Source: Parcubacteria group bacterium (GTDB lineage Bacteria; Patescibacteriota; Minisyncoccia; UBA6257; UBA11618). Taken from it: DNA of 44,190 bases. Both the position numbers and the translations under genes were made by a program. Each line of letters begins with the position of its first letter. Position 1 is the first letter of the stretch. Below are positions 8,298-38,100 of this stretch, one piece after another. Location of the stretch: the NCBI GenBank assembly GCA_943357895.1, contig CALRGO010000004.1, positions 1 to 44,190 on the forward strand, written 5' to 3'. The notes under the pieces were generated by a model. The model had not been told where the DNA came from and ran no database searches. It worked only from the letters and a program-made list of their open reading frames with translations.

Positions 8298-9308
8298 ATG
8301 AAAAAACTATCCATCGGTATCGTGGGGCTGCCTAACGTCGGTAAGTCGACGCTTTTTAAGCTACTTACGAAGCAGGATGTGAACATCGCTAACTATCCAT
8401 TTTGCACTATCGACCCGAATATTGGCATCGTTTCCGTTCCGGATAGCCGACTTACTGATCTCGCGGAGCTTTCGGAATCTAAAAAAATAGTCCCTGCTAT
8501 TGTTGAATTTTATGATATTGCGGGGCTCGTTAAGGGGGCGGCAAGCGGCGAAGGGCTCGGTAACCAGTTCCTTTCGCATATACGCGAAACGAACGCCGTT
8601 GTTATGGTGCTTCGCTGTTTTGGCGGCACGGAGATTACCCACGTAGAAAATTCCGTGGACCCCTTGCGCGATATGGGTATTATCAACGCCGAGCTCGCGC
8701 TGAAGGATTTGGAGACGGTCGAGAGGCGCATAGTTTCTCTCGGCGCCGAAGCGCGCGGCGGCAAAAAAGAAGCCGTAGTCGCGTTGCCGATAATGGAAAA
8801 GATAAAAACCGCCCTTATGGAGGGCGGATCGATTTATGAATATGCGGACGAGCCCGAAGTACGTTCGTTGCAGCTCCTAACCATGAAGCGGCAAATATGC
8901 CTATTAAATGGCACCACAGACGATGTGCCGGAAGATTTAAAAGCTGAGTTAGCTCAAAAAGGAATCGCTTATGTGGTGGCAAATGTTAGTGATGAGGCGG
9001 GCGCGAAAGATGCCTTAGCTTCGATGATACGCGAAGCCTACACAACGCTTAATTTAATAAGCTTCTTTACGACAGGGGAGGAAGAAACACGTGCATGGAC
9101 TATTCGCCGCGGGGCGAAGGCGCCGGAGGCTGCCGGAACGATCCATGGCGACTTTGAAAACAAGTTTATCCGTGCCGAAACAGTTTCTACGGAAGCCTTA
9201 CTCGAAGCGGGGAGTTGGTCGCAAGCAAAAGCGAAGGGTAAAATGCGATTAGAGGGGAAGGAGTATGTAGTCGCAGACGGCGACGTGATGGTTATACGGC
9301 ACGGCTAG
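8298..9308 (+). CDS. ychF: Ribosome-binding ATPase YchF (Obg-family GTPase/ATPase)
   Basis: It has the P-loop GIVGLPNVGKSTLF, NYPFCTIDPN, and a C-terminal TGS-like FFTTGEEETRAWTIRRGAKAPEAAGTIHGDFE. Confidence 0.9.
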   Translation: MKKLSIGIVGLPNVGKSTLFKLLTKQDVNIANYPFCTIDPNIGIVSVPDSRLTDLAELSESKKIVPAIVEFYDIAGLVKGAASGEGLGNQFLSHIRETNAVVMVLRCFGGTEITHVENSVDPLRDMGIINAELALKDLETVERRIVSLGAEARGGKKEAVVALPIMEKIKTALMEGGSIYEYADEPEVRSLQLLTMKRQICLLNGTTDDVPEDLKAELAQKGIAYVVANVSDEAGAKDALASMIREAYTTLNLISFFTTGEEETRAWTIRRGAKAPEAAGTIHGDFENKFIRAETVSTEALLEAGSWSQAKAKGKMRLEGKEYVVADGDVMVIRHG

Positions 9309-11113
9309 TTAGCACAAAGGTCGTCATCATTACGGCATGCCTCGAATGCGTCGATCATTCTTTTTATTTTTAAGCCGTTTTGTAGCTCTTTTTCTATATC
9401 GCGGGTTACCGTTGTGCGGACAATGCCCGTTTCAATGCCTTGCTCGCGAATCCCTTTTAATTTATTAACAATTTTTGTGAGTAGTGTGGCGACGCGCTGA
9501 GATAAGTAGGTGGCTTCCGGCTCTACGGCTTTTACTGCGAGTATCTCTACAGGATCCACTTTTTCTTCTATTATTTTTGGCTCCGGTTCGGTTTCTAGGG
9601 TGAAATTATTTACCCATAATGCGTCGCCTGATATACGAGCCTCATCTATTTTTCCATTAAAGAAGGCGTCTCCTCCTCCGAGCTTTTCAGCTCCACTGAT
9701 ACTCACAGAAGCATTTTTATTAGCAATGCCTTTTGTGTATGCTTTTTTCCCTACTATAATGCCATTTTGAAATACGTACATGGAGGATCCATCATAAACT
9801 CCTGCTACGTGCACCCACGTATTAGATGGTATTGCTGTATCTCCGATTATACTCGTTTCTATTTGTGCGGCATCAGATAGATGTAATGTGAGATGGTTTG
9901 CTTCGTTGATAGTAAGAGCATATGAGCGATTATCTCCCGCCTCGTTCCATTTAGTTATAATTCCTTCTTGTGCAGTTGTGGGTGCTGTGCGATATATCCA
10001 TGCGTCTATAGTGAGAGGCCCAGTAATTCCTAAATTAATTTGTTCGTTGTCGTTAATAAAACGCTTACTATTTCCATTAAATTGAAGAGCTGTATTAAAT
10101 TTACCAGTTACGCTATAAACCGGCGTACCTTTTACTTGTGTTAAGTGGTTACGATTTTCTGATGAATCGATACTAGTGCCCATTGATTCATCGAGATGCC
10201 ACACCCCTCGTAATTTTTCTTTAGGAAGTAAGTCAAAGAGTTTTTCTTCAAGGCTTACGATTTTCGTGCCGTGTTGCGGGTTCCATTTTGCGGCGGCATC
10301 TATGGTCGTCCATGGCATAGGTTCGGCAAGCCACGAGGGGCTTGCTTTTTGGTCTGTCGTAAGGTCGTTGTAGGCAGCCATGATATCCATAATGTCTTTC
10401 AGGCGCTTTGCCGCACCGTCTTTCAGGGGGTTTAAGTAGTCCTCAAGCGACTGCTCTTTGCTTTGGGCGGGTACGTCTTCGAGCGCTTGGTAGAGCATGC
10501 CGATATCTTCTTGCCGTACCGCAGTATCGTTTGTAATGAGGTTGGCAATAAGAGATAGGTCGTTATTACTGCTGTATTTGCCGTTCGTCGCTAAGTACGC
10601 GTAGGTGCAGGCGTTATTGGCATATATACGGATGTTATTATACCAGCCGTATTTTCTGACCGTTTCCCCGTAGCCGGATTTTTCTACGTGCGCGAGGCAT
10701 TGGGATTCGATACGCTGTGCTAATTGCTCGTTCGCGCTTACGCCTCCTATGGCGGCTACGCCACCGGATGATCCGCTACCGGAAGATGGAATAATGCATG
10801 ATGTCCCGTTCCATCCGTATCCCATCTGCGCACACGTTTCTGCGGTGCATGATCCGTTTGGGCAGGTAGTGGACAGTGGCGTGCATGATTGAGTGGTGCT
10901 ATTCCATGTACCACCTTGAGAATTACAAAGCATGGCTTGATATTCGTCACAGGTCATATTGCCCATCATGCACGCTTGAGCAAGATTCGGGTTCGTTCCT
11001 TGCATCATCCTTTGCTTTTGCATTAAGGTATTGCGCGGTTGGATGACGACGACGAGTAAAACAGCAACGGTTGCCGCGAGTAATAACAAATATGAAATGG
11101 CGCGTTCGGTCAT
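9305..11113 (-). CDS. Membrane-anchored surface protein with a Cys-rich N-region and a LamG-like (concanavalin A-like lectin) jelly-roll domain
   Basis: 602 aa with an N-terminal TM helix and a Cys-rich stretch (CMMGNMTCDEY...CPNGSCTAETC). The LamG pattern reads LTIDAWIY...YALTINEANHLTLHLSD...NTWVHVAGVYDGSSMYVFQNG...FFNGKIDEARISGDAL. TAGAAT lies 6 nt upstream of the ATG. Confidence 0.7.
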   Translation of the reverse strand: MTERAISYLLLLAATVAVLLVVVIQPRNTLMQKQRMMQGTNPNLAQACMMGNMTCDEYQAMLCNSQGGTWNSTTQSCTPLSTTCPNGSCTAETCAQMGYGWNGTSCIIPSSGSGSSGGVAAIGGVSANEQLAQRIESQCLAHVEKSGYGETVRKYGWYNNIRIYANNACTYAYLATNGKYSSNNDLSLIANLITNDTAVRQEDIGMLYQALEDVPAQSKEQSLEDYLNPLKDGAAKRLKDIMDIMAAYNDLTTDQKASPSWLAEPMPWTTIDAAAKWNPQHGTKIVSLEEKLFDLLPKEKLRGVWHLDESMGTSIDSSENRNHLTQVKGTPVYSVTGKFNTALQFNGNSKRFINDNEQINLGITGPLTIDAWIYRTAPTTAQEGIITKWNEAGDNRSYALTINEANHLTLHLSDAAQIETSIIGDTAIPSNTWVHVAGVYDGSSMYVFQNGIIVGKKAYTKGIANKNASVSISGAEKLGGGDAFFNGKIDEARISGDALWVNNFTLETEPEPKIIEEKVDPVEILAVKAVEPEATYLSQRVATLLTKIVNKLKGIREQGIETGIVRTTVTRDIEKELQNGLKIKRMIDAFEACRNDDDLCAN

Positions 11114-11912: not shown

Positions 11913-11989
11913 ATATGTATACAGCCTATCATTATCGTGCAGGGGAGGGGAGTATTGCTATTTTATCTTTTTTAAAGCATATTCACGGT

Positions 11990-13102
11990 ATGAAAAAACA
12001 CTCTTACGTAACGGATATTGCTCTTGTGGTAGGGCTTTTAGTTTTTATCGCGGCGCCGAGTTTCGCCGTAACTATGCCGAATATAGGCGCGGCGGCGGGA
12101 TACGCGATCCTCGACAGCGCAACGGCTAACACGCAGGCGAAGGCAGACGCGCAAAACGCCTATAACCAGATTTTGGCTATGGCATGCACGAAAGACATGA
12201 CCGACGTCAATCTTAATAACCAAATTCTTACCGCTGGTGTTTATTGCTTCGGTACGCCGACGTTCTTGCAGGGTCAAGTGCTTTTCGACGCGAAGGGCGA
12301 TACGAACGCCGTATTCGTGATGAAGATGGCGAGCCGCTTCGACGCATGGCCGGATTCCACTGTTGTGCTTTTAAACGGTGCGCAACCCCAAAATATTTTT
12401 TGGCTCGCGGGTGGTGCGGCAACGCTTGGCACGTCGGTTAATTTTGCGGGTACGGTAATCACCATGGCGCCGATTGCGTTCGGTCGCGGGGGAGACGCGC
12501 CAGTATTCGATGAGCACGGCATGGTAAACGGCCGGTTGTGGTCGGTGGGGAATACGGTAACAGTACCGAGTCGCGTAACAGTCGGCTTTATGGCTCCGGT
12601 CGGTAATGCGTATGTTGTTCCGCAGGCGACTCAGCCGCAGTATATAGCACCACAGCAACCGACAGGCGCCTTACTTTCGGTGATAGTCAACGAGCCCGGC
12701 GTCATTCCGTTTGTAAACGGAACGCGTGTCGTAAGCGGCATGAAGACGCCGTTTGCCGCAGGTACGTACACGGTAAGCGAAATCAACACTTCGGGGACGG
12801 ATTACGGCACACCAACGTTCTCGGGTAGCTGTACGCAAAACGGCCTTACGGGTACTATCACTCTCAACGCAGGGGATGATAAGGTGTGCGTTATAAACAA
12901 TACGCCGGTTGCGGTGTGGTCAGCGCCTGCTATTGCTGCTGCATGTAAGGGGAGTGCCTGCAGGCCTACAATGCCTAATACGGGCCGCAGTGCCGGTACG
13001 GCCTTCGGTGATCTCTATATACCGACACTTAATATGATCGGGCTTATACTCGTCCTCGGATTCGTATGGAACGAAGCTTCGTCCGGAAGGCGCTCCTCGT
13101 AA
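11990..13102 (+). CDS. Cell-surface ice-binding-like (DUF3494) protein with a C-terminal sortase sorting signal (MPNTG + TM + basic tail)
   Basis: The signal peptide MKKHSYVTDIALVVGLLVFIAAPSFA starts at ATG 11990. The DUF3494-like core reads LTAGVYCFGTP...LFDAKGDTNAVFVMKM...NGAQPQNIFWLAGGAATLGTSVNFAGTVI. The C-terminus reads PTMPNTGRSAG...LILVLGFVWNEASSGRRSS. Confidence 0.7.
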   Translation: MKKHSYVTDIALVVGLLVFIAAPSFAVTMPNIGAAAGYAILDSATANTQAKADAQNAYNQILAMACTKDMTDVNLNNQILTAGVYCFGTPTFLQGQVLFDAKGDTNAVFVMKMASRFDAWPDSTVVLLNGAQPQNIFWLAGGAATLGTSVNFAGTVITMAPIAFGRGGDAPVFDEHGMVNGRLWSVGNTVTVPSRVTVGFMAPVGNAYVVPQATQPQYIAPQQPTGALLSVIVNEPGVIPFVNGTRVVSGMKTPFAAGTYTVSEINTSGTDYGTPTFSGSCTQNGLTGTITLNAGDDKVCVINNTPVAVWSAPAIAAACKGSACRPTMPNTGRSAGTAFGDLYIPTLNMIGLILVLGFVWNEASSGRRSS

Positions 13103-13641
13103 GCGCGGTAGGATATATTGCAATTGCTGCTTTCGTTTTTTGGAACGAGGGGGGGTTAACCGCTTCCTCCCCTGCCGTTTTTTTGAAAACCGAGCGAGGG
13201 GAGGGTGGGTGGCTTTTAATACCTAAGATTGGTGTGGATGCGAAAATACAGACGGTCGGTACGACGCCATCCGGATCCATCGGTATACCGTCGAACGCTA
13301 AGGACGTTGCGTGGTTCGCCGGGTCTTCGCCTATAGCCACGGCCGGTACGGCCGTCGTGGTGGGGCATGTGGATACCCGCGTATTCGGTGCCGGCGTATT
13401 TCGGGGTCTAAAGGGGTTAGCTAAGGGGGATGTTATATATACGTCCATAGATGGTCGTATAAGCCGTTTTACGGTGACGGGGTATGCGGTGTATCCAGAG
13501 GGCACAGACCGCATGGACGAGGTTATAGGCACGCGAACAGGGAGTGCACGGCTTGTGCTTATTACCTGCGACGGTAGGTGGGATCAGTCTGTTAAGAGAT
13601 ACACCGACCGCTTAGTGGTATTTGCCGATAGAGAAGCTTAG
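13066..13641 (+). CDS. Sortase (class E/F-like transpeptidase)
   Basis: It has an N-terminal TM helix, LLIPKIGVDA, a catalytic His (VVVGHVD), a catalytic Cys in LVLITCDG, and Arg in YTDRLVVFA. It overlaps the 3' end of its putative substrate gene by 37 nt. Confidence 0.8.
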   Translation: MERSFVRKALLVSAVGYIAIAAFVFWNEGGLTASSPAVFLKTERGEGGWLLIPKIGVDAKIQTVGTTPSGSIGIPSNAKDVAWFAGSSPIATAGTAVVVGHVDTRVFGAGVFRGLKGLAKGDVIYTSIDGRISRFTVTGYAVYPEGTDRMDEVIGTRTGSARLVLITCDGRWDQSVKRYTDRLVVFADREA

Positions 13642-23637: not shown

Positions 23638-23685
23638 AATATTCTGTACTTATAACAGCTATAGCTGTTATAAGTACAGAATATT
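23638..23685. repeat. Palindrome copy 1 (48-bp perfect palindrome containing the shared 34-bp core at 23645-23678)
   Basis: AATATTCTGTACTTATAACAGCTA|TAGCTGTTATAAGTACAGAATATT. It lies between convergent dnaX and the PaaX-like gene and overlaps the latter's stop codon. Confidence 0.95.
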
Positions 23686-24235
23686 ACAACCCAAACTTCG
23701 TTTTTAAATCAGATGCGTTATCAATATCCCTCGCGATGATCATGCGCACATACGGACGTATCTGGAAAAGATCGGCTATTAAATTAATCTCATCGGCACA
23801 TTCATAGGGATGTACGAACACGCTTTTTTGAAGCGTGCGTAGTCCGAGGATTTTGAGGCGTGCGGCAAGGGCATCTCTCCCCTTCTTTTTGTGTTCCGGT
23901 ATATCGAACATAACGATATGCCATAATCCATCCCATTTTTTTGGTATTTTGATTTTGATCGCGTCGAGGTTGTAAATTAGCGCCTTTATTTTACCCGATT
24001 TACTAAGTGTTATCGCAATCGTTCCGTCGGCATTATTTATACTACGTATATCTTTGGAGGTACGGAGTCGTTGAACGGCGCGCTCTAGGCTACGTTCGTT
24101 TATGTCTTTCCATTCTTCGATAGCAGCTTTGATTAATTTCCATGAATGCTTCGATTGCGGGTTAAATAATAATATCCCGCCCGTAACGAGTGTTAGTAAT
24201 ATCTTCTGTTCTATAGCGCCATATTTTTCTCTCAT
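23684..24235 (-). CDS. PaaX-family-like transcriptional regulator (wHTH N-domain plus Cas2-like core)
   Basis: Start taken at MREKYGAIEQKILL (ATG 24235); the ORF-track extension merely translates the palindrome. The segment WDGLWHIVMFDIPEHKKKGRDALAARLKILGLRTLQKSVFVHP matches the Cas2-like central domain pattern of PaaX-type repressors, from memory. Confidence 0.55.
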   Translation of the reverse strand: MREKYGAIEQKILLTLVTGGILLFNPQSKHSWKLIKAAIEEWKDINERSLERAVQRLRTSKDIRSINNADGTIAITLSKSGKIKALIYNLDAIKIKIPKKWDGLWHIVMFDIPEHKKKGRDALAARLKILGLRTLQKSVFVHPYECADEINLIADLFQIRPYVRMIIARDIDNASDLKTKFGL

Positions 24236-24243
24236 ATTTCTAT

Positions 24244-24285
24244 TATTTGTACTTATAACAGCTATAGCTGTTATAAGTACAAATA
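24244..24285. repeat. Palindrome copy 2 (42-bp perfect palindrome; 34-bp core at 24248-24281)
   Basis: The core is identical to copy 1. It lies between the divergent PaaX-like gene and tRNA-Gln(UUG), and overlaps the AATAAT hexamer (24242-24247, minus) that sits 6 nt upstream of the regulator ATG. Confidence 0.95.
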
Positions 24286-24333
24286 TAGCACGGTGGTAAA
24301 ATGGGTGAAAATATGGCAGGATAATCACGATAT

Positions 24334-24404
24334 TGCCGGGTCGTCTAATGGTCGGACAGCGGACTTTGAATCCGTCAATCTAGGTTCGATTCCTAGCCTG
24401 GCAA
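24334..24404 (+). tRNA. tRNA-Gln (anticodon UUG)
   Basis: Hand-folded cloverleaf: acceptor TGCCGGG/CCTGGCA, anticodon stem GCGGA/TCCGT with loop CTTTGAA, T-arm CTAGG-TTCGATT-CCTAG. 71 nt, no encoded CCA. Confidence 0.9.
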
Positions 24405-24415
24405 CAAATATAAAT

Positions 24416-26749: not shown

Positions 26750-27075
26750 CACGAAGGTATGCGATAAGCCGAATTCTGTTACGTCTTGCGACGCATAACG
26801 ACCATTTGTCTAAGCGGCACTCCGTATGCTTGCGCATACGGCACGGCCTTGCACCCGAGTAAGGATTTAGCCGTTTCATCTTAGCCTTCAACTGCTAAGC
26901 ACATCCGCATTGCTGCGGATGCCGCAGCTCTTTCGGGCTGTGGCGTTTCTGTTCGCACCTCTCCGTTACCGGTGACGGCTTTTCAACCGCTACTTGTTTA
27001 TACGTGCCTTACGGCGCATATGAGTGTCCGGACTTTCCTCCCCTTACGGAGCGGTCGTCTGGCATACCTCCGTAC
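26750..27075 (-). ncRNA. rnpB: RNase P RNA (bacterial type A-like)
   Basis: The minus strand contains GGAGGAAAGUCCGGAC (P4 5' strand/CR-I) and ACAGAAUUCGGCUUAUC (P4 3' strand/CR-V). A P1 helix pairs CGGAGGUAUGC (27072-27062) with GCAUACCUUCG (26762-26752). GUGCGAACAGAAACGCC and CUUAGACAAAUGGUCG are also present. There is no credible ORF, and ends are approximate. Confidence 0.9.
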
Positions 27076-28375: not shown

Positions 28376-28409
28376 TGTACTTATAACAGCTATAGCTGTT
28401 ATAAGTACA
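28376..28409. repeat. Palindrome copy 3 (34-bp core only)
   Basis: Identical to the cores at 23645 and 24248. It starts 1 nt after the pgk stop codon and ends 2 nt upstream of a TTGAAT -35-like hexamer for the DHH gene. Confidence 0.95.
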
Positions 28410-28410
28410 G

Positions 28411-29373
28411 TTATTTTTCGAGGGCTGAGATACCGGGGAGTTTTTCGCCGCTTAAAAAAGCGAGCATGGCGCCGCCGCCGGTTGAAACCCAGTCGAATTT
28501 TTTTATCAGGCCCTCCTTCTGCAAGAAGTCGGCAGTGTCTCCCCCGCCCGCTACGGAGAAGGCTTTGCTTTTTATAATCGCGGCCGCGAGTGCCTGCGAG
28601 CCTTTGGCGTATTTCGCGTTTTCCGCTTTGCCTACCGGCCCGCTCCAGACTACCGTCTTTGCCTTGGCGATTACTTTTTCGTATTCCTCCGTCGTTTTTA
28701 CGCCAATATCTTGCCACGCGTTGCCGCCTATGCCGTCTTTCGCAAATACAATATCTGCATGGCGAGGCAGGGCTTCGGGCGACATGCGGTATGCGCTGCC
28801 TAAGAGGAACTTCGTGCCGGCGTTTTCGAACTTTTGGATGACGCCGATTTTATCTTCTATCTTTATACCGCCTAAAATCACGACGCGCGGGTAGTCGGGG
28901 TTGTCGCGTACGTGTGAAAGGTTCTTAATTTCTTCTTCCAAATGCAGGCCGGCGTACGAGGGCAGGAATTCCGTGATGGCGACCATAGAGGCGGCTTTGC
29001 GGTGGCTTGTCGCGAAGTCATCGTTAATATAGATATCTGCGCCTTGCGCGAGCTCTTTGGCGAACGCGACGTTGTTTGCCTCCTCGCGCGGGTCGAAACG
29101 CAGGTTTTCGCGCCACTCGACGGCTTGTCCCAGTTCTTTTTCTATCAGGCTCACGGCGCGCTTAAGAGAAAGCGCCGCATCTTCCCCCTTCGGCCGGCCG
29201 CGATGGCTTATGATGACGGGTTTCGCGCCATACTTGAATAAGAAGCGGAGTGTGGGGAGCGTTGCTTGTAAGCGCAAAGAATCCCGCGAGGGATCCTTTA
29301 TGTCGAGGTTTACGCGCACGAGGCACGTCTTTCCCCGCAACTTCGGTTCAGTTAGCGTGCGGAGCAGGCGCAC
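28411..29373 (-). CDS. pgk: Phosphoglycerate kinase (short form, 320 aa)
   Basis: Motifs seen are GKTCLVRVNLD, ISHRGRPKG, AGGGDTADF and the C-terminal STGGGAMLAFLSGEKLPG. Confidence 0.85.
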   Translation of the reverse strand: MRLLRTLTEPKLRGKTCLVRVNLDIKDPSRDSLRLQATLPTLRFLFKYGAKPVIISHRGRPKGEDAALSLKRAVSLIEKELGQAVEWRENLRFDPREEANNVAFAKELAQGADIYINDDFATSHRKAASMVAITEFLPSYAGLHLEEEIKNLSHVRDNPDYPRVVILGGIKIEDKIGVIQKFENAGTKFLLGSAYRMSPEALPRHADIVFAKDGIGGNAWQDIGVKTTEEYEKVIAKAKTVVWSGPVGKAENAKYAKGSQALAAAIIKSKAFSVAGGGDTADFLQKEGLIKKFDWVSTGGGAMLAFLSGEKLPGISALEK

Positions 29374-29376
29374 GGG

Positions 29377-29904
29377 TTATCTCGTCCGCTTATGCGTAAT
29401 GAAATTCCAGAGGGCTTCGAAGACGTTGGCTTGGGTATTAGGCGCACATGTTGTGAGGCTCGTATTATGCCAACCATTAAGGCAAGTAATTGGAGTAGTT
29501 GGTCTTAAGTAACCCGGTTGAGCTATAGGGTTGGTATGAGGAATTACTGGGGCTTGCGTTGTCGTGCATGCACCACAGGTGCAGGTGGTGACGGTTCCGT
29601 TCGGATTAATTCTTGTCGTTTGCCCTCCTGCTGTGGTCGACGGGGTTGGATGAGGTAGAGTTGCGGGATTTACTGAGGGTGTTCTAAGGGTGTAATTAGG
29701 TCGCACACTTGCGCAATTACCGCTTCCTATTGGCCAATAACCAGTATTTGTTGGATACGCACAAATCTCGTTACCTGGGCATGTTACTACTACTGGGTTA
29801 CTGCCTCCTGTACTACAGCGTTCACCTGCGTAAGCTAGGTTAATTCCTAAAAGAAAAAATCCTGCAATCGTGACATTTATAATAAGTATCTGATTTATTT
29901 TCAT
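29377..29904 (-). CDS. Secreted cysteine-rich protein P1 (no recognisable domain)
   Basis: It has the signal peptide MKINQILIINVTIAGFFLLGINLAYA, 9 Cys in the mature part, and a Pro/Thr-rich core. The C-terminus ANVFEALWNFITHKRTR is shared with P2. Confidence 0.6.
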   Translation of the reverse strand: MKINQILIINVTIAGFFLLGINLAYAGERCSTGGSNPVVVTCPGNEICAYPTNTGYWPIGSGNCASVRPNYTLRTPSVNPATLPHPTPSTTAGGQTTRINPNGTVTTCTCGACTTTQAPVIPHTNPIAQPGYLRPTTPITCLNGWHNTSLTTCAPNTQANVFEALWNFITHKRTR

Positions 29905-29913
29905 ACTTTTATT

Positions 29914-30648
29914 TTAATACGGTTTGCGGTGCGTTAGGAATCCCCAGAGTGCGTCGAAAACGTTGGCTGTTCCGCAAACCCTTTTTCCTGCCTTAGGATA
30001 GACCACGACTCCATTGATTATTTTTCGTTCGCATTTTTCATAAATTTGATTCCAATAATTTTCTTCTAGGCGGGCGCCGATGCGGCGGCTTCTTATTGCA
30101 TCTTCACCTGCAACGCAAGTATTGAATTTTACCTCTTCAGGACTTTCTTGATATTTGCACGTAATTCTCGTTCCGGCGCTGAAGTTAGTAGTCGGCCCTG
30201 CGGGCAATGGATATGCTCTTTGGGGTTGTGCTGTCGGCTGGTTGACATGCCCGTCTATGGGAGCTCTCCAGCTTGCCATAAGATCACGTATCGTCATCGT
30301 GTTTGGCGGAAGGGTTCCGCCGCAGGGGTCGGTAATACAAGCCGTCTTCTCTTTGTTAAGGATTTTTCCTGCGGAGCATGTCGGAGCAGTAATGTCCTTT
30401 TCTTTGGTATTTTTTTTGTTTCCATTATTAAAACTTGGCGGGGGGGATTCTCCGTCAACAAAGCATAAAAGTCCATATGATGCAGGCGGTTCTCCTTCAT
30501 ATGGGGCGGTGCCTCGCATTCTTGTGCATATTCCTTGACTGCCGTCGCTGCAGGTGCGACTTTGACCGGCACAGTCATTTTGCTGTTGCGCTTCTGCAAA
30601 GCCAATCCCTCCAACAATAAAAGTGATTATAAGTAAGATTTTCTTCAT
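29914..30648 (-). CDS. Secreted cysteine-rich protein P2 (paralog-like to P1 at the C-terminus)
   Basis: It has the signal peptide MKKILLIITFIVGGIGFAEA, 11 Cys, and the C-terminus ANVFDALWGFLTHRKPY. Confidence 0.6.
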   Translation of the reverse strand: MKKILLIITFIVGGIGFAEAQQQNDCAGQSRTCSDGSQGICTRMRGTAPYEGEPPASYGLLCFVDGESPPPSFNNGNKKNTKEKDITAPTCSAGKILNKEKTACITDPCGGTLPPNTMTIRDLMASWRAPIDGHVNQPTAQPQRAYPLPAGPTTNFSAGTRITCKYQESPEEVKFNTCVAGEDAIRSRRIGARLEENYWNQIYEKCERKIINGVVVYPKAGKRVCGTANVFDALWGFLTHRKPY

Positions 30649-30712
30649 ATATTCACTGTAGCATAAGGGCTTGAAAAAAAGCTGTGGATAAGGTAGTATA
30701 TAAGCAACTCAG

Positions 30713-30991
30713 ATGGCACATACAAAATCCTTAGGTTCAACTAAATTAGGCCGTGATTCAGCCGCGCAGCGGCTGGGCGTCAAGAAAAACCACAACGAGC
30801 CTATCGGCGCGGGTGAAATTATCATCCGCCAGCGGGGCAGTAAGTACTTGGCGGGCGTAAACGTCCGTGTGGGCAGCGACGACACGCTTTACGCCGCAAC
30901 TGCCGGCATCGTGCAGTACAAGACGAAGCATAAGACTTGCTTTGATGGATCGCGCCGTAGCGCGAAGATGGTGAGCGTAGTAGTTAAATAA
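30713..30991 (+). CDS. rpmA: 50S ribosomal protein L27
   Basis: MAHTKSLGSTKLGRDSAAQRLGVKK...IIIRQRGSKY..G.NV..G.DDTLYA is the canonical L27 pattern. Confidence 0.95.
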   Translation: MAHTKSLGSTKLGRDSAAQRLGVKKNHNEPIGAGEIIIRQRGSKYLAGVNVRVGSDDTLYAATAGIVQYKTKHKTCFDGSRRSAKMVSVVVK

Positions 30992-30997
30992 TGCAAT

Positions 30998-31029
30998 AAC
31001 AAAAACCGCCCGTACGGGCGGTTTTTGTT
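30998..31029. terminator. Bidirectional terminator between rpmA and P3
   Basis: AACAAAAACCGCCCGTACGGGCGGTTTTTGTT is a perfect GC-rich palindrome (31006-31021) flanked by A- and T-runs. Confidence 0.75.
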
Positions 31030-31031
31030 AT

Positions 31032-31871
31032 TTAGCACTTACTCAAATCCATTAACTTTAGAGCATCTTTACAAGCTTGCGAATTAATACTTGCTCCATA
31101 TCCATTGATATTGCATGCATCAGGGAGGGCGCAAATATTATTTCCTCCTGTTGTGGGGCCGCTGCTACCGGGGCGGCAGGGAGGGATTCCGGTAGTAGGA
31201 GTGGTGTATGCGGGTACCGGTACGTACTGGGGGGCCGAAACGGTGGCGGCAGGTGTTGTCGCTGGCGGGTTGAAATAATTCGCTACCGTATTTACAAAAA
31301 CGGCTGCCCAAGAAGTCTGTTGGTTGTCGGTTGCCGCCGCTCCACGCGATGATTGGCTGTCTTGCGTCCAATTCCTATTAAAGCATCCTGCGGCGCTCTG
31401 GTCAGCTATATCTTCAGTATATTGGGCGGTGGTGCAGCTTTTTGTGTATTCTTCTATTTTATCGGTAATCTTTTTCTCTAAATCTCTGTACTCTTGTGCG
31501 AGAGCTATGAGTTTTTTTACTATGGGTGGAATATTTTCACATCCCTTTACGTTACGAACAGCAATGGTCGAGGGCGCACAGTACGATGCAGCATTAACCA
31601 AGTCGTATGACCATGTGCGTCCGTCCACAGTAAGATTGACGCGCTGCTTTGATCTTCGTGCAATCTCCTCAAGTTGTTCGAGCTCTTCCCTTTTTGCATT
31701 CCGTTGCCGAATAAGGGCTTTATATTCCGCAGATTCTATTTTTTCTTGAAAACAGGCGGCGTAGGCTTTTTGGGCAGGTGTCGTAGCGCACCTATTTTGC
31801 GGGTCCACTTGCCCGTATGCTAAAGGCGCAATGCATGAGAATAAAGTTATTGCTATGATTAATTGTTTCAT
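31032..31871 (-). CDS. Secreted cysteine-rich protein P3 (coiled-coil N-part, PT-linker, Cys-rich C-part)
   Basis: Start taken at MKQLIIAITLFSCIAPLAYG (ATG 31871), which removes the overlap with P4. The mature part has 11 Cys, and no known domain is recognised. Confidence 0.6.
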   Translation of the reverse strand: MKQLIIAITLFSCIAPLAYGQVDPQNRCATTPAQKAYAACFQEKIESAEYKALIRQRNAKREELEQLEEIARRSKQRVNLTVDGRTWSYDLVNAASYCAPSTIAVRNVKGCENIPPIVKKLIALAQEYRDLEKKITDKIEEYTKSCTTAQYTEDIADQSAAGCFNRNWTQDSQSSRGAAATDNQQTSWAAVFVNTVANYFNPPATTPAATVSAPQYVPVPAYTTPTTGIPPCRPGSSGPTTGGNNICALPDACNINGYGASINSQACKDALKLMDLSKC

Positions 31872-31897
31872 ATATTTAATACTACCATAGTAAGTTT

Positions 31898-32785
31898 TTA
31901 CGGGCCGACGCAGGACTGCCTTGTAATGCATTCATTCGGATTTTCGTAGAGATCATCCGGCTTACTGTCTTCGCAGTCAGCTAGATCTTTTTTAAGAATT
32001 CTATCCGCCTTTTGTTTTGCGTCGGCCTCTTTCTGCATCACATCATTAAATTGCTGTATTTGCCTATTTTGACAAGTCGGGCTTGTGTATTTATAGCTAT
32101 CGTAACTGCATAGCCGCACTACTTCCTCAAAAGAATACGTTACTGTGCCAAAATCTCCATGTGATGCAAGTAATCTCATGGCTATTTGCTGGGTAGGATC
32201 AATTCCCGCATTACTGATAGCGTCTTTTGTTGCCTGTACGCTGTCATCCCACGCCTTTTTATATTTTTGGTTGGCATTGGGGCCACATGCAAGATATTTT
32301 CCTGTCGGGGAATTAGGATCCCATTCGTCGCAGCCTCCCGGCTTATAGGCGCATGCAGCCCCATTTCCTAAATTATTTGAATCGGTGTTTGTGCTCCCCC
32401 TTCCGCATGGCCGAGTTTGTTGCGAAGGTGTCGCAAAGGTTAACGCTATAGGCGCTGTGGCAGGGCGGGTGGTGGGTGGCGTTACAGGTGGAGTTATAGC
32501 TGGCGCTTGCGGCGGTGAGAACCATGACGTGAGCCATTGATACCATACGGGTAGTTCCGGCACGGCGGGTGGTGGCGGCGGATTGTTGTTGCCGCCGTTC
32601 GTGGTGCCTGCGGAGACGCAGGTGCCTGCATCACCTCCTACGGAAAATAATTGGCAGGTGAGACCGACCCCACACAGAACAGGATTAAAACCTCCACAAT
32701 AATCGCCTTCATTTTGGGCAAAAGAAATAAAAGGGCTTAATCCAAAGATGGCGGACAGTCCTATAATCGCAAGGAATTTTTTCAT
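31898..32785 (-). CDS. Secreted cysteine-rich protein P4
   Basis: It has the signal peptide MKKFLAIIGLSAIFGLSPFISFA, 13 Cys, a poly-Pro/PT linker and a helical C-part. TATTAT lies 7 nt upstream of the ATG. Confidence 0.6.
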   Translation of the reverse strand: MKKFLAIIGLSAIFGLSPFISFAQNEGDYCGGFNPVLCGVGLTCQLFSVGGDAGTCVSAGTTNGGNNNPPPPPAVPELPVWYQWLTSWFSPPQAPAITPPVTPPTTRPATAPIALTFATPSQQTRPCGRGSTNTDSNNLGNGAACAYKPGGCDEWDPNSPTGKYLACGPNANQKYKKAWDDSVQATKDAISNAGIDPTQQIAMRLLASHGDFGTVTYSFEEVVRLCSYDSYKYTSPTCQNRQIQQFNDVMQKEADAKQKADRILKKDLADCEDSKPDDLYENPNECITRQSCVGP

Positions 32786-32821: not shown

Positions 32822-33250
32822 TTACTTATCCCCAGCTGTCTCTATCGTGATTTTCCCTTCGATTCCCTTGCCGAGGTGGATTACGGCGTGGTGTGTGCCG
32901 AGTGTGCGTAGCGGTTTATCAAGATCTATTTTTGCCGTTTCATAACCCAGCTTCTTTAGCGCGGCAGTAATATCTTCTTTGGTAATCGAATTAAATACTT
33001 CGCCGTGGGGGCCGGTTTTGAGCGTAAAACGCATCGGCTCTATCGTGAGTTTTTTTGCGAGCGCCTTCAAATCCTCCGTTTCCTTATTTCCCTTTTTCAC
33101 CTGTGTCTCGTATTTGGCGAGCTCCGCAGGCGTTGCCTGCACGGCGAGCTTTTTAGGCAATAAAAGATTCATGGCGTGGCCGTCGGACGTGGTGATTAGC
33201 TCGCCCGCCCTGCCGACCCCCTTAACATCCTTAAGGAGTATTACTTTCAT
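32822..33250 (-). CDS. rplI: 50S ribosomal protein L9
   Basis: The N-domain MKVILLKDVKGVGRAGELITTSDGHAMNLLLPKKLA is typical of L9, followed by a helical linker. Confidence 0.9.
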   Translation of the reverse strand: MKVILLKDVKGVGRAGELITTSDGHAMNLLLPKKLAVQATPAELAKYETQVKKGNKETEDLKALAKKLTIEPMRFTLKTGPHGEVFNSITKEDITAALKKLGYETAKIDLDKPLRTLGTHHAVIHLGKGIEGKITIETAGDK

Positions 33251-33254
33251 ACGT

Positions 33255-34490
33255 TTATTTTATTTTTGCCTTTACTAATTCTAATGCCTTATCGAGTTGC
33301 GGGTCGCGCTTTTTTTCGCGGTCCACATCCGTAATCTTTACGACGATATCCGGCACGATGCCGTTTTTGTCTATCTGCGCCCCCTTCGGCAATATCCAGT
33401 GCGCTATCGTAAGCTTTATTTCCGCCCCGCCGCGCAACTTTGTAAGCTCCTGCACTGTCCCCTTACCGAAGCTCTTTTCGCCCACAATCGGCGTACCGAG
33501 ATTGTCTTTTAACGCGCCCGCTAAAATTTCGCTCGCGGATGCCGAGCCGCCGTTCAAAAGAATCGCCATCGGTACGTCCTTAGCTATCGGCGTGCCGCGT
33601 GAGAGGAATGTGTCGCGCTTGCCGTTACGGAATTCTTCAAACACGACGGTTTTGCCTGCGTCCATAAAGTAGCCGGCAATAGTAACCGCGGCGTCTAAGT
33701 AGCCTCCGGGGTTGTTGCGCATATCGAGCACTATGCCCTTCGCGCCTGCTGCTTTTGCCTCCGTTACCGCCGTGCGCACCAAATCTGCCGAATTTTCACT
33801 GAAGGTATAAAACTGAATATGGGCAATCGAATGGTCTTTCATCTTCCATTCGACGACAGGGATTTTAATAGTATCGCGCACGACTTTTATCGTGAGTGGC
33901 TTTTCGTGCCCCGTGCGGCCGATAAGAAAAGTGACAGTAGTCCCCTTCGGGCCACGGATTTTCTTTACTGCGTCGCTTATTGTCATGCTTACCGTTGAGC
34001 TTGCGTTGATTTCGTAGAGTTTATCCCCACTCATTAAGCCGCTCTTTTCTGCAGGCGAATTTTTAAGGGGGGCGATAACTACTATCTGCTCGTTCTTTAT
34101 GCCGATCTCCGCGCCGATGCCGCCGAAGTTGCCGTTAATATCCTCCCCGAAGCGCTTAGCTTCTTCGGGGTTCATGAATACGGAATACGGGTCTTTGAGC
34201 GAAGCGACGAGCCCCTCTGCCGCGCCGTATATCATGTCGCCGCTTTTAACCTCGCCCGCGCGCAAGTATGAGCCCTGTATCATGCGCCACGCGTCCCAGA
34301 ATATGGCGAAATCTTCCTTGGATGTGATGCCCGTTTCGGCGTTTTCAAGCCCTTTTATTTCGAACGTTTGGGGGCGGCGGGTGCCGAGTTCGTAGCCCGT
34401 GCCGCCTGCAATTAAGGCGCAGAGCACGATTATTGCGATGCGCGTAACGTACGCCAGCTTCCGAGGGCTTTGTTCCATTCGCTTCATCAT
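33255..34490 (-). CDS. ctpA: Carboxy-terminal processing protease (S41, PDZ-containing)
   Basis: It has GGIGAEIG, PDZ motifs (PAEKSGLMSGDKL), the catalytic region LLNGGSASASEILAGALKD and FGKGTVQ. Start is uncertain among ATG 34490, 34487 and 34478. The track start at 34577 is rejected because it lies upstream of the TM anchor. Confidence 0.85.
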   Translation of the reverse strand: MMKRMEQSPRKLAYVTRIAIIVLCALIAGGTGYELGTRRPQTFEIKGLENAETGITSKEDFAIFWDAWRMIQGSYLRAGEVKSGDMIYGAAEGLVASLKDPYSVFMNPEEAKRFGEDINGNFGGIGAEIGIKNEQIVVIAPLKNSPAEKSGLMSGDKLYEINASSTVSMTISDAVKKIRGPKGTTVTFLIGRTGHEKPLTIKVVRDTIKIPVVEWKMKDHSIAHIQFYTFSENSADLVRTAVTEAKAAGAKGIVLDMRNNPGGYLDAAVTIAGYFMDAGKTVVFEEFRNGKRDTFLSRGTPIAKDVPMAILLNGGSASASEILAGALKDNLGTPIVGEKSFGKGTVQELTKLRGGAEIKLTIAHWILPKGAQIDKNGIVPDIVVKITDVDREKKRDPQLDKALELVKAKIK

Positions 34491-38011: not shown

Positions 38012-38082
38012 TGCCGGATCATCTAGTGGTAGGATAGCGGACTCTGAATCCGTTCACCTTGGTTCGAATCCAAGTCCGGCAA
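38012..38082 (+). tRNA. tRNA-Gln (anticodon CUG)
   Basis: Acceptor TGCCGGA/TCCGGCA, anticodon stem GCGGA/TCCGT with loop CTCTGAA, T-arm CTTGG-TTCGAAT-CCAAG. 71 nt. Confidence 0.9.
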
Positions 38083-38100
38083 CTAAGTTTTTCATTATAA

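Follow-up and report, generated by a model that had tools for sequence, protein, structure and literature searches.

Predicted exported proteins with odd cysteine counts and rapid divergence in the rplI-rpmA-pgk region of a Parcubacteria group bacterium

In the genome of a Parcubacteria group bacterium (NCBI GenBank assembly GCA_943357895.1), the region between pgk and rplI on contig CALRGO010000004.1 contains four minus-strand genes, termed P1 to P4 here, whose cysteine-rich products carry export signals, evolve far faster than the products of the neighbouring genes and retain an odd number of mature cysteines in every distinct member of the set. The window is the whole stretch of 44,190 nucleotides (nt) that was analysed (positions 1 to 44,190 of the contig, forward strand), and coordinates refer to it unless a relative is named. 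The proteins belong to three previously undescribed families, A (P1 and P2), B (P3) and C (P4), of which family A is characterized by a common C-terminal tail. The four genes are interpreted as encoding lineage-specific envelope or surface proteins that are exported by the general secretory (Sec) pathway, folded by disulfides and subject to diversifying pressure, a reading that is held with middling confidence, at about an even chance.

Export signals, composition and domain searches

An earlier note, made from the sequence alone, described four minus-strand genes around the plus-strand rpmA whose products have Sec-type signal peptides, Pro/Thr/Gly-rich linkers, 9, 11, 11 and 13 mature cysteines and no recognisable domain, and whose sequences are AT-richer than pgk, rplI and ctpA; each of these points is borne out here. 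The list of open reading frames (ORFs) confirms positions and lengths (Table 1), and a recount finds 9, 11, 12 and 13 cysteines in P1 to P4, one of those in P3 being located inside the leader, which yields the mature numbers as claimed. Cysteine accounts for 4.3-5.1% of the residues of P1-P4 versus about 0.9% in the other window proteins. By inspection, all four begin with MK(K), a hydrophobic core of 12-18 residues and the cleavage sites AYA/G, AEA/Q, AYG/Q and SFA/Q, which were assigned by eye; this canonical pattern of Sec/signal peptidase I leaders is, again by inspection, kept in all relatives. Stretches rich in Pro, Thr, Gly, Ser, Asn and Gln reach 0.6-0.75 per 20 residues in P1-P4. The difference in base composition is located in third codon positions, whose GC content (GC3) is 35-44% in P1-P4 versus 53-65% in pgk, rpmA, rplI, ctpA and other housekeeping genes.

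No domain match for P1-P4 was obtained in Pfam or NCBIfam (E values up to 1 in both), PHROGs or PADLOC, and the cluster proteins had no meaningful match in PDB, whether searched by sequence or by profile. Searches of Pfam and NCBIfam matched no toxin, inhibitor, bacteriocin, S-layer or Omc family, and for the first three of these categories PADLOC and PDB were equally empty. The helical, coiled-coil-like modules that had been noticed in P3 and P4 are weakly supported: residues 169-272 of P4 are helical in an AlphaFold2 (AF2) model with a predicted local distance difference test score (pLDDT) of at most 50, and the module of P3 was recognized by sequence inspection only.

Several known categories were tried and rejected. 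The proteins are not assigned to bacterial lipoproteins, as they lack a conserved lipobox and the sole leader cysteine, in P3 (LFSC), is missing in the relatives of family B. Sortase (LPXTG) substrates were dismissed as well, since there is no LPXTG motif, no C-terminal transmembrane segment and no NCBIfam sorting-signal hit, the P1 tail reading ANVFEALWNFITHKRTR; a sortase gene is present elsewhere in the window. Known C-terminal sorting domains (PEP-CTERM, GlyGly-CTERM, MYXO-CTERM and others) gave no NCBIfam hit for P1 or P2 at E values up to 1, and the family A tail is too short for a membrane span. An IGFBP-N/EGF-like identity for the N-terminal four-cysteine module (CGG..C..G..C..G.C), received no support from Pfam, PDB profiles, hhalign or Foldseek. 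Finally, an origin from phages or defence systems was discarded in view of the absence of PHROGs and PADLOC matches and of cluster homologues on viral contigs.

Cysteine parity

The number of mature cysteines is odd in 28/28 distinct members and ranges from 5 to 17. Family A members have 5, 7, 9, 11, 13, 15 or 17, family B members 11 or 15, family C members 11 or 13 and the singletons 7, 9 or 11, which amounts to at least ten distinct family-and-count states, all of them odd. In bacteria that form disulfides, even cysteine counts normally prevail among exported proteins (PMC7678975), and the other exported proteins of the window have 2, 2, 2, 2, 6 and 12 cysteines, apart from the sortase with its single one. 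Since the counts shift in steps of two yet stay odd, the cysteines appear to be paired in disulfides, with one unpaired cysteine left in each protein. The gain and loss of cysteines in pairs across the 28 members thereby lends indirect support to the disulfide stabilisation that had been suggested before. Oxidative folding capacity is plausible given that a DsbA/MdbA-like family and VKOR have been reported to be widespread in bacteria of the candidate phyla radiation (CPR) (bioRxiv 10.1101/335083).

In several members, the arrangement of the cysteines suggests which one is left over. In family A, P0003 (4+1), L022_253 (4+1+4) and L020_232 (4+1+4) each place a lone cysteine after or between even-numbered modules. 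The lone residue of the first two is the cysteine of a C-x-x-T-[LY]-x-P motif, while that of L020_232 lies in the degenerate sequence PCGRLDTL. Of the 15 family A members, 12 contain the motif in the form C-x-x-T-[LIM]-x-P, and the alignment of P2-type proteins shows Cys109, T112, L113 and P115 to be invariant. P3, the family B member of the window, is composed of a helical-looking N-terminal half, a Pro/Thr-rich linker and a C-terminal five-cysteine module that has Cys279 as its end. Throughout family B, the N-terminal half contains 6 or 10 cysteines and the C-terminal module always 5, and cysteine is the last residue in three of the four members. In the family C proteins P4, P0006 and L020_326, the odd set is the final three-cysteine module, which ends with C-V-G-P.

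Families and distribution

All-against-all BLASTP comparison of 32 sequences together with hhalign separates the proteins into three unrelated sequence families in which only P1 and P2 are linked, and the earlier proposal of one family of four paralogues was therefore abandoned. In the BLASTP set, family A (P1-type and P2-type) has 14 sequences, which are connected through the common tail and through P0010, a homologue that bridges the two types (E value of 1.8e-11 to P2), family B (P3-type) has four, family C (P4-type, including a shorter type termed R186) has seven, and three singletons stand outside. hhalign comparisons between the N-terminal four-cysteine modules of the different types gave probabilities below 1%.

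The genes occupy two slots, slot A between rplI and rpmA and slot B between rpmA and pgk, and both slots are occupied in every relative that was fetched: L001 (GCA_964436175.1), L012, L013, L014, L020 (GCA_023244855.1), L022 and L024. Across the searched databases and fetched contigs, homologues are confined to a narrow clade and always reside in these slots of the rplI-rpmA-pgk arrangement. Word-indexed searches of 5.8 billion proteins with three queries found 3, 2 and 0 relatives, an exhaustive phmmer search with P1 over 1.84 billion representatives gave four matches, and patterns of family A retrieved nothing new from GTDB representative genomes or JGI metagenomes; further members were gained only by walking out from the 90% cluster of pgk products. 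Viral contigs contained no cluster homologues.

More distant relatives, with ctpA products 41-46% identical (L008 11830-12996, L009 6348-7457 and L010 12693-13817), are without the cluster. Downstream of ctpA, these three encode an unrelated protein of 370-390 residues with 20-24 cysteines, a hydrophobic N-terminal segment (containing GMALIIVLTASF) and the C-terminal sequence IRC[IL]RR[YF].

Divergence, gene content and mosaicism

Compared with L001, the flanking genes encode proteins of 76-96% identity with ratios of nonsynonymous to synonymous substitution rates (dN/dS) of 0.04-0.14, whereas identity is 58% in the part of P2 that aligns (dN/dS of 0.39) and 42% for P1 (0.34), and the slot A occupants P3 and P4, at about 30% identity, are effectively unalignable. 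Synonymous divergence (dS) is saturated, and the bodies of the cluster genes are unalignable between relatives. Even genomes whose pgk products fall into a single 90% cluster harbour quite different, unalignable proteins in slots A and B. The genes are conserved as coding in the relatives: frames, leaders, cysteine parity and tail are kept, and dN/dS is 0.34-0.39 where an alignment can be made.

Gene content varies as well, with two to four cluster genes per genome. L012 has one gene per slot, slot A of the window and of L020 contains a P4-type followed by a P3-type gene, L022 and L024 have a P3-type followed by an R186-type gene, and L001 has an R186-type gene followed by a short singleton. 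DNA can be aligned at gene junctions only, with tail/leader junctions of 76-133 nt at 82-93% identity. The conserved junctions are rplI with the slot A start, the last 15 nt of P4 with the P3 start, rpmA with the P2 leader and, within slot B, the P2 tail with the P1 leader and the P1 tail with pgk. Several members are mosaics: P0007 shares its N-terminal half with P4 and has a different C-terminal half, P0006 shows the reverse combination (the C-terminal half of P4 and another N-terminal half), and P0003 joins a P2-type N-terminal module to a P1-type tail. Likewise, the P2-type gene of L013 matches at 94.5% nucleotide identity over 202 nt and is unrelated from there up to the tail.

In L001 (5705-5773), L018 (982-1054) and L019 (1410-1439), roughly 70 nt from the 3' end of rplI, including the stop codon, recur together with the promoter box behind the first slot A gene; the window has lost this copy. 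Such a copy is expected from a tandem duplication that took in the end of rplI, and as a putative scar it hints at common ancestry of the slot A genes, which is not sequence evidence for it. Variation by a diversity-generating retroelement (DGR) or by invertible elements was rejected: between positions 27000 and 35000 there are no long repeats apart from a 39-nt tail repeat and no DGR-type repeats, and Pfam detects no reverse transcriptase among the 44 window ORFs scanned. PF13456 matches in the relatives represent RNase H and not reverse transcriptase. Both the fast evolution relative to the neighbours and the mosaicism fit surface or interaction proteins.

Expression signals

An extended -10-like box is located 6-7 nt before the ATG of each of P1-P4, none of which has a Shine-Dalgarno (SD) sequence, and the boxes are kept upstream of the orthologues. 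In the window as a whole, 12/35 genes have a TAnnnT hexamer that ends 6-7 nt ahead of the start codon, with no other offset represented more than three times, compared to SD-like tetramers in 3/35 genes, which makes leaderless mRNAs from gene-proximal promoters likely. For the most part, the genome seems to use leaderless mRNAs whose -10 boxes lie close to the genes.

The gene-caller start of P3 is doubtful. The recorded protein of 299 residues begins at a first ATG at position 31931, and both the position of the -10 box and the leader favour the product of 279 residues, leaving 31872-31931 as the questionable part. A second suspect start concerns L024_272 (L024 3871-3909), whose called ORF lacks the leader; its true ATG lies 39 nt upstream and gives MKKILIFSMLFLPMLSNA.

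The distance between the P1 stop codon and the start codon of pgk is 3 nt. With its GTG start and no promoter box of its own, pgk, which has a short product (319-326 residues in relatives), appears to depend on transcription from P1/P2. Two transcription units are likely, (rplI-)P4-P3 and P2-P1-pgk, and the hairpin between rpmA and P3, a predicted strong terminator, would end the first and separate it from the second. Constitutive co-transcription with translation and glycolysis operons, as envisaged in the earlier note, therefore stands in part: pgk is probably read through from P1/P2, whereas the -10 boxes belonging to the cluster genes and the terminator at 30995-31032 speak for separate units. 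A near-identical junction of 22 nt, TAAAATAAA[A/C]GTATGAAA, occurs both at P2-to-P1 (29895-29916) and at ctpA-to-rplI (33241-33262) and comprises stop codon, -10-like box and start codon.

The arrangement of genes and promoters invites the alternative that P1-P4 are structural envelope proteins, S-layer- or wall-associated and cross-linked by disulfides, whose variability results from phage or predator pressure and not from host recognition. This would suit a slot next to core genes that is kept in every relative examined and an expression that appears coupled to pgk; in addition, the cysteine parity suggests covalent coupling, for which chlamydial cysteine-rich envelope proteins are a precedent. 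However, one spare cysteine per chain permits dimers and no lattice, differences in gene number and type among close relatives (two to four genes) are unusual for an essential scaffold, and Pfam and NCBIfam revealed no resemblance to known S-layer or Omc proteins. This alternative is judged unlikely.

The family A tail

In 14 of 15 family A members the last element is the tail motif [AG]-[NS]-x-[FI]-[ED]-[AS]-[LF]-W-[NG]-F-[ILV]-T-H-[KR], followed by 0-3 residues, which P1 and P2 share in the form ANVF[ED]ALWxF[IL]TH[KR] and which was encountered nowhere else in the fetched contigs. Between lineages as well as between P1 and P2 of one genome, the proportion of nonsynonymous differences (pN) in the tail is 0.09-0.25 versus 0.5-1.0 for synonymous differences (pS). 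With synonymous sites close to saturation and the residues nevertheless preserved, selection acts on the peptide itself.

It could be argued that tail and junctions mainly serve as DNA or RNA elements of the genes downstream of them (promoter, leaderless start, initiation of pgk), that the peptide has no role and that the proteins drift fast under weak constraint. The P1 tail is indeed identical in nucleotide sequence between the window and L001 at a dS of 0.5-1.5 in neighbouring genes, the -10 box of P1 and the stop codon of P2 overlap, 3 nt separate the end of P1 from the start of pgk, and a low GC3 is expected under relaxed codon selection. The pS and pN values among distant members and for P1 versus P2, frames, leaders and cysteine parity that are maintained in all 28 members, and dN/dS below 1 all argue against it, and it is regarded as very improbable. 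Under the preferred reading, tail identity between the closest genomes fits a second role of this segment as a junction, with the same overlap of box and stop codon and the same proximity of pgk.

A recognition link between the tail and the PDZ domain of ctpA (C-terminal protease) was considered and dropped, as the distant relatives have ctpA-rplI without the cluster and the tail ends with basic residues.

The tail also bears on the possibility that the proteins are released as soluble effectors, toxins or inhibitors against hosts or competitors, comparable to disulfide-rich protease inhibitors or bacteriocin-like products, and are not cell-bound. Cluster proteins carry N-terminal Sec-type leaders and have no transmembrane segment, lipobox or LPXTG motif, families B and C are tailless, and small, disulfide-rich and fast-evolving modules are typical of secreted effectors and inhibitors; Foldseek with the low-confidence P2 model additionally gave faint, non-significant EGF-like light-chain matches (E values of at least 2, probability of at most 0.44). 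Set against this, Pfam, NCBIfam, PADLOC and PDB gave no match to a toxin, inhibitor or bacteriocin family, the cluster has no adjacent immunity or transporter gene, the family A tail and the single spare cysteine suggest tethering, and a promoter in common with the essential pgk argues for steady and not conditional expression. Release from the cell is accordingly considered improbable, to a degree similar to a structural envelope role.

Features of the locus and other observations in the window

The features of the locus are compiled in Table 1.

Table 1. Genes, motifs and predicted expression signals in and around the P1-P4 cluster (window coordinates).
Feature	Position	Strand	Description
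P1	29377-29904	minus	175 aa; family A (tail family); exported; 9 mature Cys (ORF, Cys count)
P2	29914-30648	minus	244 aa; family A; exported; 11 mature Cys as 4 + 3 + 4
P3	31032-31871	minus	279 aa from second ATG; family B; 11 mature Cys
P4	31898-32785	minus	295 aa; family C; 13 mature Cys as 4, 4, 2 and 3; C-terminal end C-V-G-P
rpmA	30713-30991	plus	ribosomal protein L27; divergent from P2, convergent on P3
pgk	28411-29373	minus	320 aa; GTG start; downstream of P1
rplI	32822-33250	minus	upstream boundary of slot A
P1 C-terminal tail	29377-29430	minus	ANVFEALWNFITHKRTR + stop; most conserved portion of family A
P2 C-terminal tail	29914-29967	minus	ANVFDALWGFLTHRKPY + stop
P1 motif CTTTQAP	29548-29568	minus	C-x-x-T-x-x-P; Cys113 is candidate unpaired Cys
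P2 motif CGGTLPP	30304-30324	minus	Cys109 is candidate unpaired Cys
-10-like hexamer of P1	29911-29916	minus	TAAAAT; 6 nt before P1 ATG; overlaps P2 stop codon
Extended -10-like box of P2	30655-30663	minus	TGCTACAGT; 6 nt before P2 ATG
Extended -10-like box of P3	31879-31887	minus	TGGTAGTAT; 7 nt before P3 ATG at 31871
Extended -10-like box of P4	32793-32801	minus	TGGTATTAT; 7 nt before P4 ATG
Bidirectional terminator hairpin	30995-31032	both	17-bp stem, A and T runs at flanks; between rpmA and P3 ends
Palindromic hairpin	28376-28409	n/a	directly after pgk; one of three identical window copies

A perfect palindrome of 32 nt, GTACTTATAACAGCTATAGCTGTTATAAGTAC, is present in three identical copies (23646-23677, 24249-24280 and 28377-28408), with none expected by chance, and copies are also found in L001; it looks like a repetitive extragenic palindromic (REP)-like or terminator element. 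One copy lies inside the 5' end of a 214-residue ORF with a PaaX_M/Cas2-like central domain (23684-24328, minus) and another just downstream of it, which makes the annotated start of this ORF doubtful. A further candidate surface protein of 602 residues is encoded at 9305-11113 (minus). It has an N-terminal membrane anchor, a Laminin_G_3/ConA-like domain, a GC3 of 43%, which is low like that of the cluster genes, and 10 cysteines within about 120 residues, the total being an even 12. An Ice-binding-like (PF11999) protein of 395 residues (11915-13102, plus) is directly followed by the overlapping sortase gene (13066-13641, plus); the two probably form a sortase-substrate pair, which indicates a monoderm-type envelope. 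Apart from two genes for tRNA-Gln, at 24334-24405 and 38012-38083 (anticodons TTG and CTG), no RNA genes were detected in the window.

Proposed function and its weighing

From the conserved sequence layout, the following course of events can be envisaged for P1-P4. Each gene would have an extended -10 promoter of its own and yield a leaderless mRNA, with read-through from P2/P1 into pgk, and the leader would direct the product to Sec export and cleavage by signal peptidase I. The mature protein would then form two to eight intramolecular disulfides and leave exactly one cysteine unpaired, presumably that of C-x-x-T-L-x-P in family A and one in the last cysteine module, no more than about 11 residues from the C-terminus, in families B and C, which in P3 is the final residue and in P4 would be Cys292 or a neighbour. 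This spare cysteine may make one intermolecular disulfide, most simply between P1 and P2 and between P3 and P4, or else with another envelope component; in L012, which has one gene per slot, the two products would be the partners. In family A, the tail, in which basic residues follow a short and aromatic, helix-like stretch, might keep P1 and P2 attached to the surface of membrane or wall or dock them to a partner, and a role as amphipathic membrane anchor is kept as a weak hypothesis. Protein bodies appear to diversify by point change, tandem duplication and module exchange between strains, in which the conserved junctions (tail with next leader, promoter boxes, rplI 3' end) could serve as homology anchors. 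Interaction with host cells or phages would be the likely selective agent. Of all this, the export signals, the cysteine parity, the constraint on the tail peptide, the pattern of divergence and the layout of promoters and terminator are read from the sequences themselves, whereas disulfide formation, the link between chains and its partner, the role of the tail and the selective agent are predictions.

Carried to its fullest form, this would be a new system of two disulfide-linked heterodimeric surface receptors, P1·P2 and P3·P4, to which each subunit contributes its spare cysteine; one pair would be held at the surface by a new tail signal, and the bodies would be swapped between strains at the junctions, as a host- or phage-interface cassette of ultra-small episymbionts. 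Such a system is a speculative proposal that is regarded as quite unlikely.

Several observations weigh against the interpretation as disulfide-folded surface proteins or against parts of it. The 28 proteins stem from about eight related genomes and are not independent samples, and several of their counts hinge on cleavage sites placed by eye (P3 C13, L022_151 C14, P0010 C3 and P0004 C22). Nor is an odd number of cysteines proof of a disulfide between chains: Grem1 and Grem2 form non-covalent dimers despite odd counts (PMC7473711). No gene for a disulfide oxidoreductase (Dsb) or VKOR lies within the window. The AF2 models, calculated with shallow alignments, reach a pLDDT of 35 for P4 and 43 for P2 and are too poor as structural support, and Foldseek with the low-confidence P2 model gave no hit at E values below 1. 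As for the tail, its DNA is 100% identical between P1 of the window and of L001, it always adjoins the start of the next gene, so that part of the DNA conservation may serve the transcription or translation of that gene, and its hydrophobic moment is unremarkable (78th-93rd percentile of the 13-mers of the window). Finally, host interaction and an episymbiotic lifestyle are inferred from the label "uncultured Candidatus Saccharibacteria", which submitters gave to the metagenome-assembled genome of the nearest species representative, and from one relative that was recovered from a 0.1 µm groundwater fraction; both taxon and episymbiotic lifestyle rest on that label.

Beyond type IV pili, the ways in which ultra-small CPR/Patescibacteria recognize and hold their partners are largely unexplained, and the products of the cluster are concrete candidates: a compact locus with a constant position in all relatives examined encodes exported, hypervariable proteins that would each retain one reactive cysteine. 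The odd-cysteine rule represents a simple, falsifiable biochemical prediction, and the tail and the C-x-x-T-L-x-P motif provide handles to find, tag or mutate such proteins; neither the rule nor tail or motif was found in a non-exhaustive literature search. In addition, the layout of conserved junctions and variable bodies and the leaderless promoters bear on genome annotation, as illustrated by the two suspect gene-caller starts.

Comparison with known systems

The cluster can be compared with five kinds of known systems. Small secreted cysteine-rich effectors of fungi and oomycetes would be analogous in having a signal peptide, a high cysteine content, no known domains, a lineage-restricted and clustered occurrence, fast diversification and low GC3. 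They differ in being eukaryotic and in usually having even cysteine numbers, no relation in sequence or fold is apparent, and the cluster has a conserved tail and a strict odd-cysteine rule. Cystine-knot dimers of the TGF-beta/PDGF type likewise keep an odd cysteine count amid divergence, which suggests one cysteine for a covalent partner, but the cluster proteins have no sequence or structural match to them and another cysteine spacing. The C-terminal amphipathic-helix anchors of PBP5 and PBP6 of Escherichia coli also belong to exported proteins with no transmembrane segment and combine an aromatic or hydrophobic end with basic residues, whereas the tail described here has only about 13 residues plus 2-4 basic ones, an ordinary hydrophobic moment and no homology to them, its anchoring function being putative. 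Mycoplasma Vsp/Vlp and Borrelia Vsp/Vlp-like loci share conserved leaders and junctions, a hypervariable mature region, a variable gene number and mosaic alleles; unlike them, the cluster lacks a lipobox, tandem repeats within genes and invertible or silent-cassette elements, and the window contains no DGR-type repeat. Lastly, the MdbA/VKOR-dependent exported proteins of Actinobacteria and CPR bacteria (bioRxiv 10.1101/335083) correspond in the monoderm envelope and the reliance on disulfides, while the machinery was not found in the window and the known substrates (pilins) are unrelated to the cluster proteins. By the membership tests run, the cluster is a member of none of these systems, and it behaves like hypervariable secreted or surface loci and small cysteine-rich effectors.

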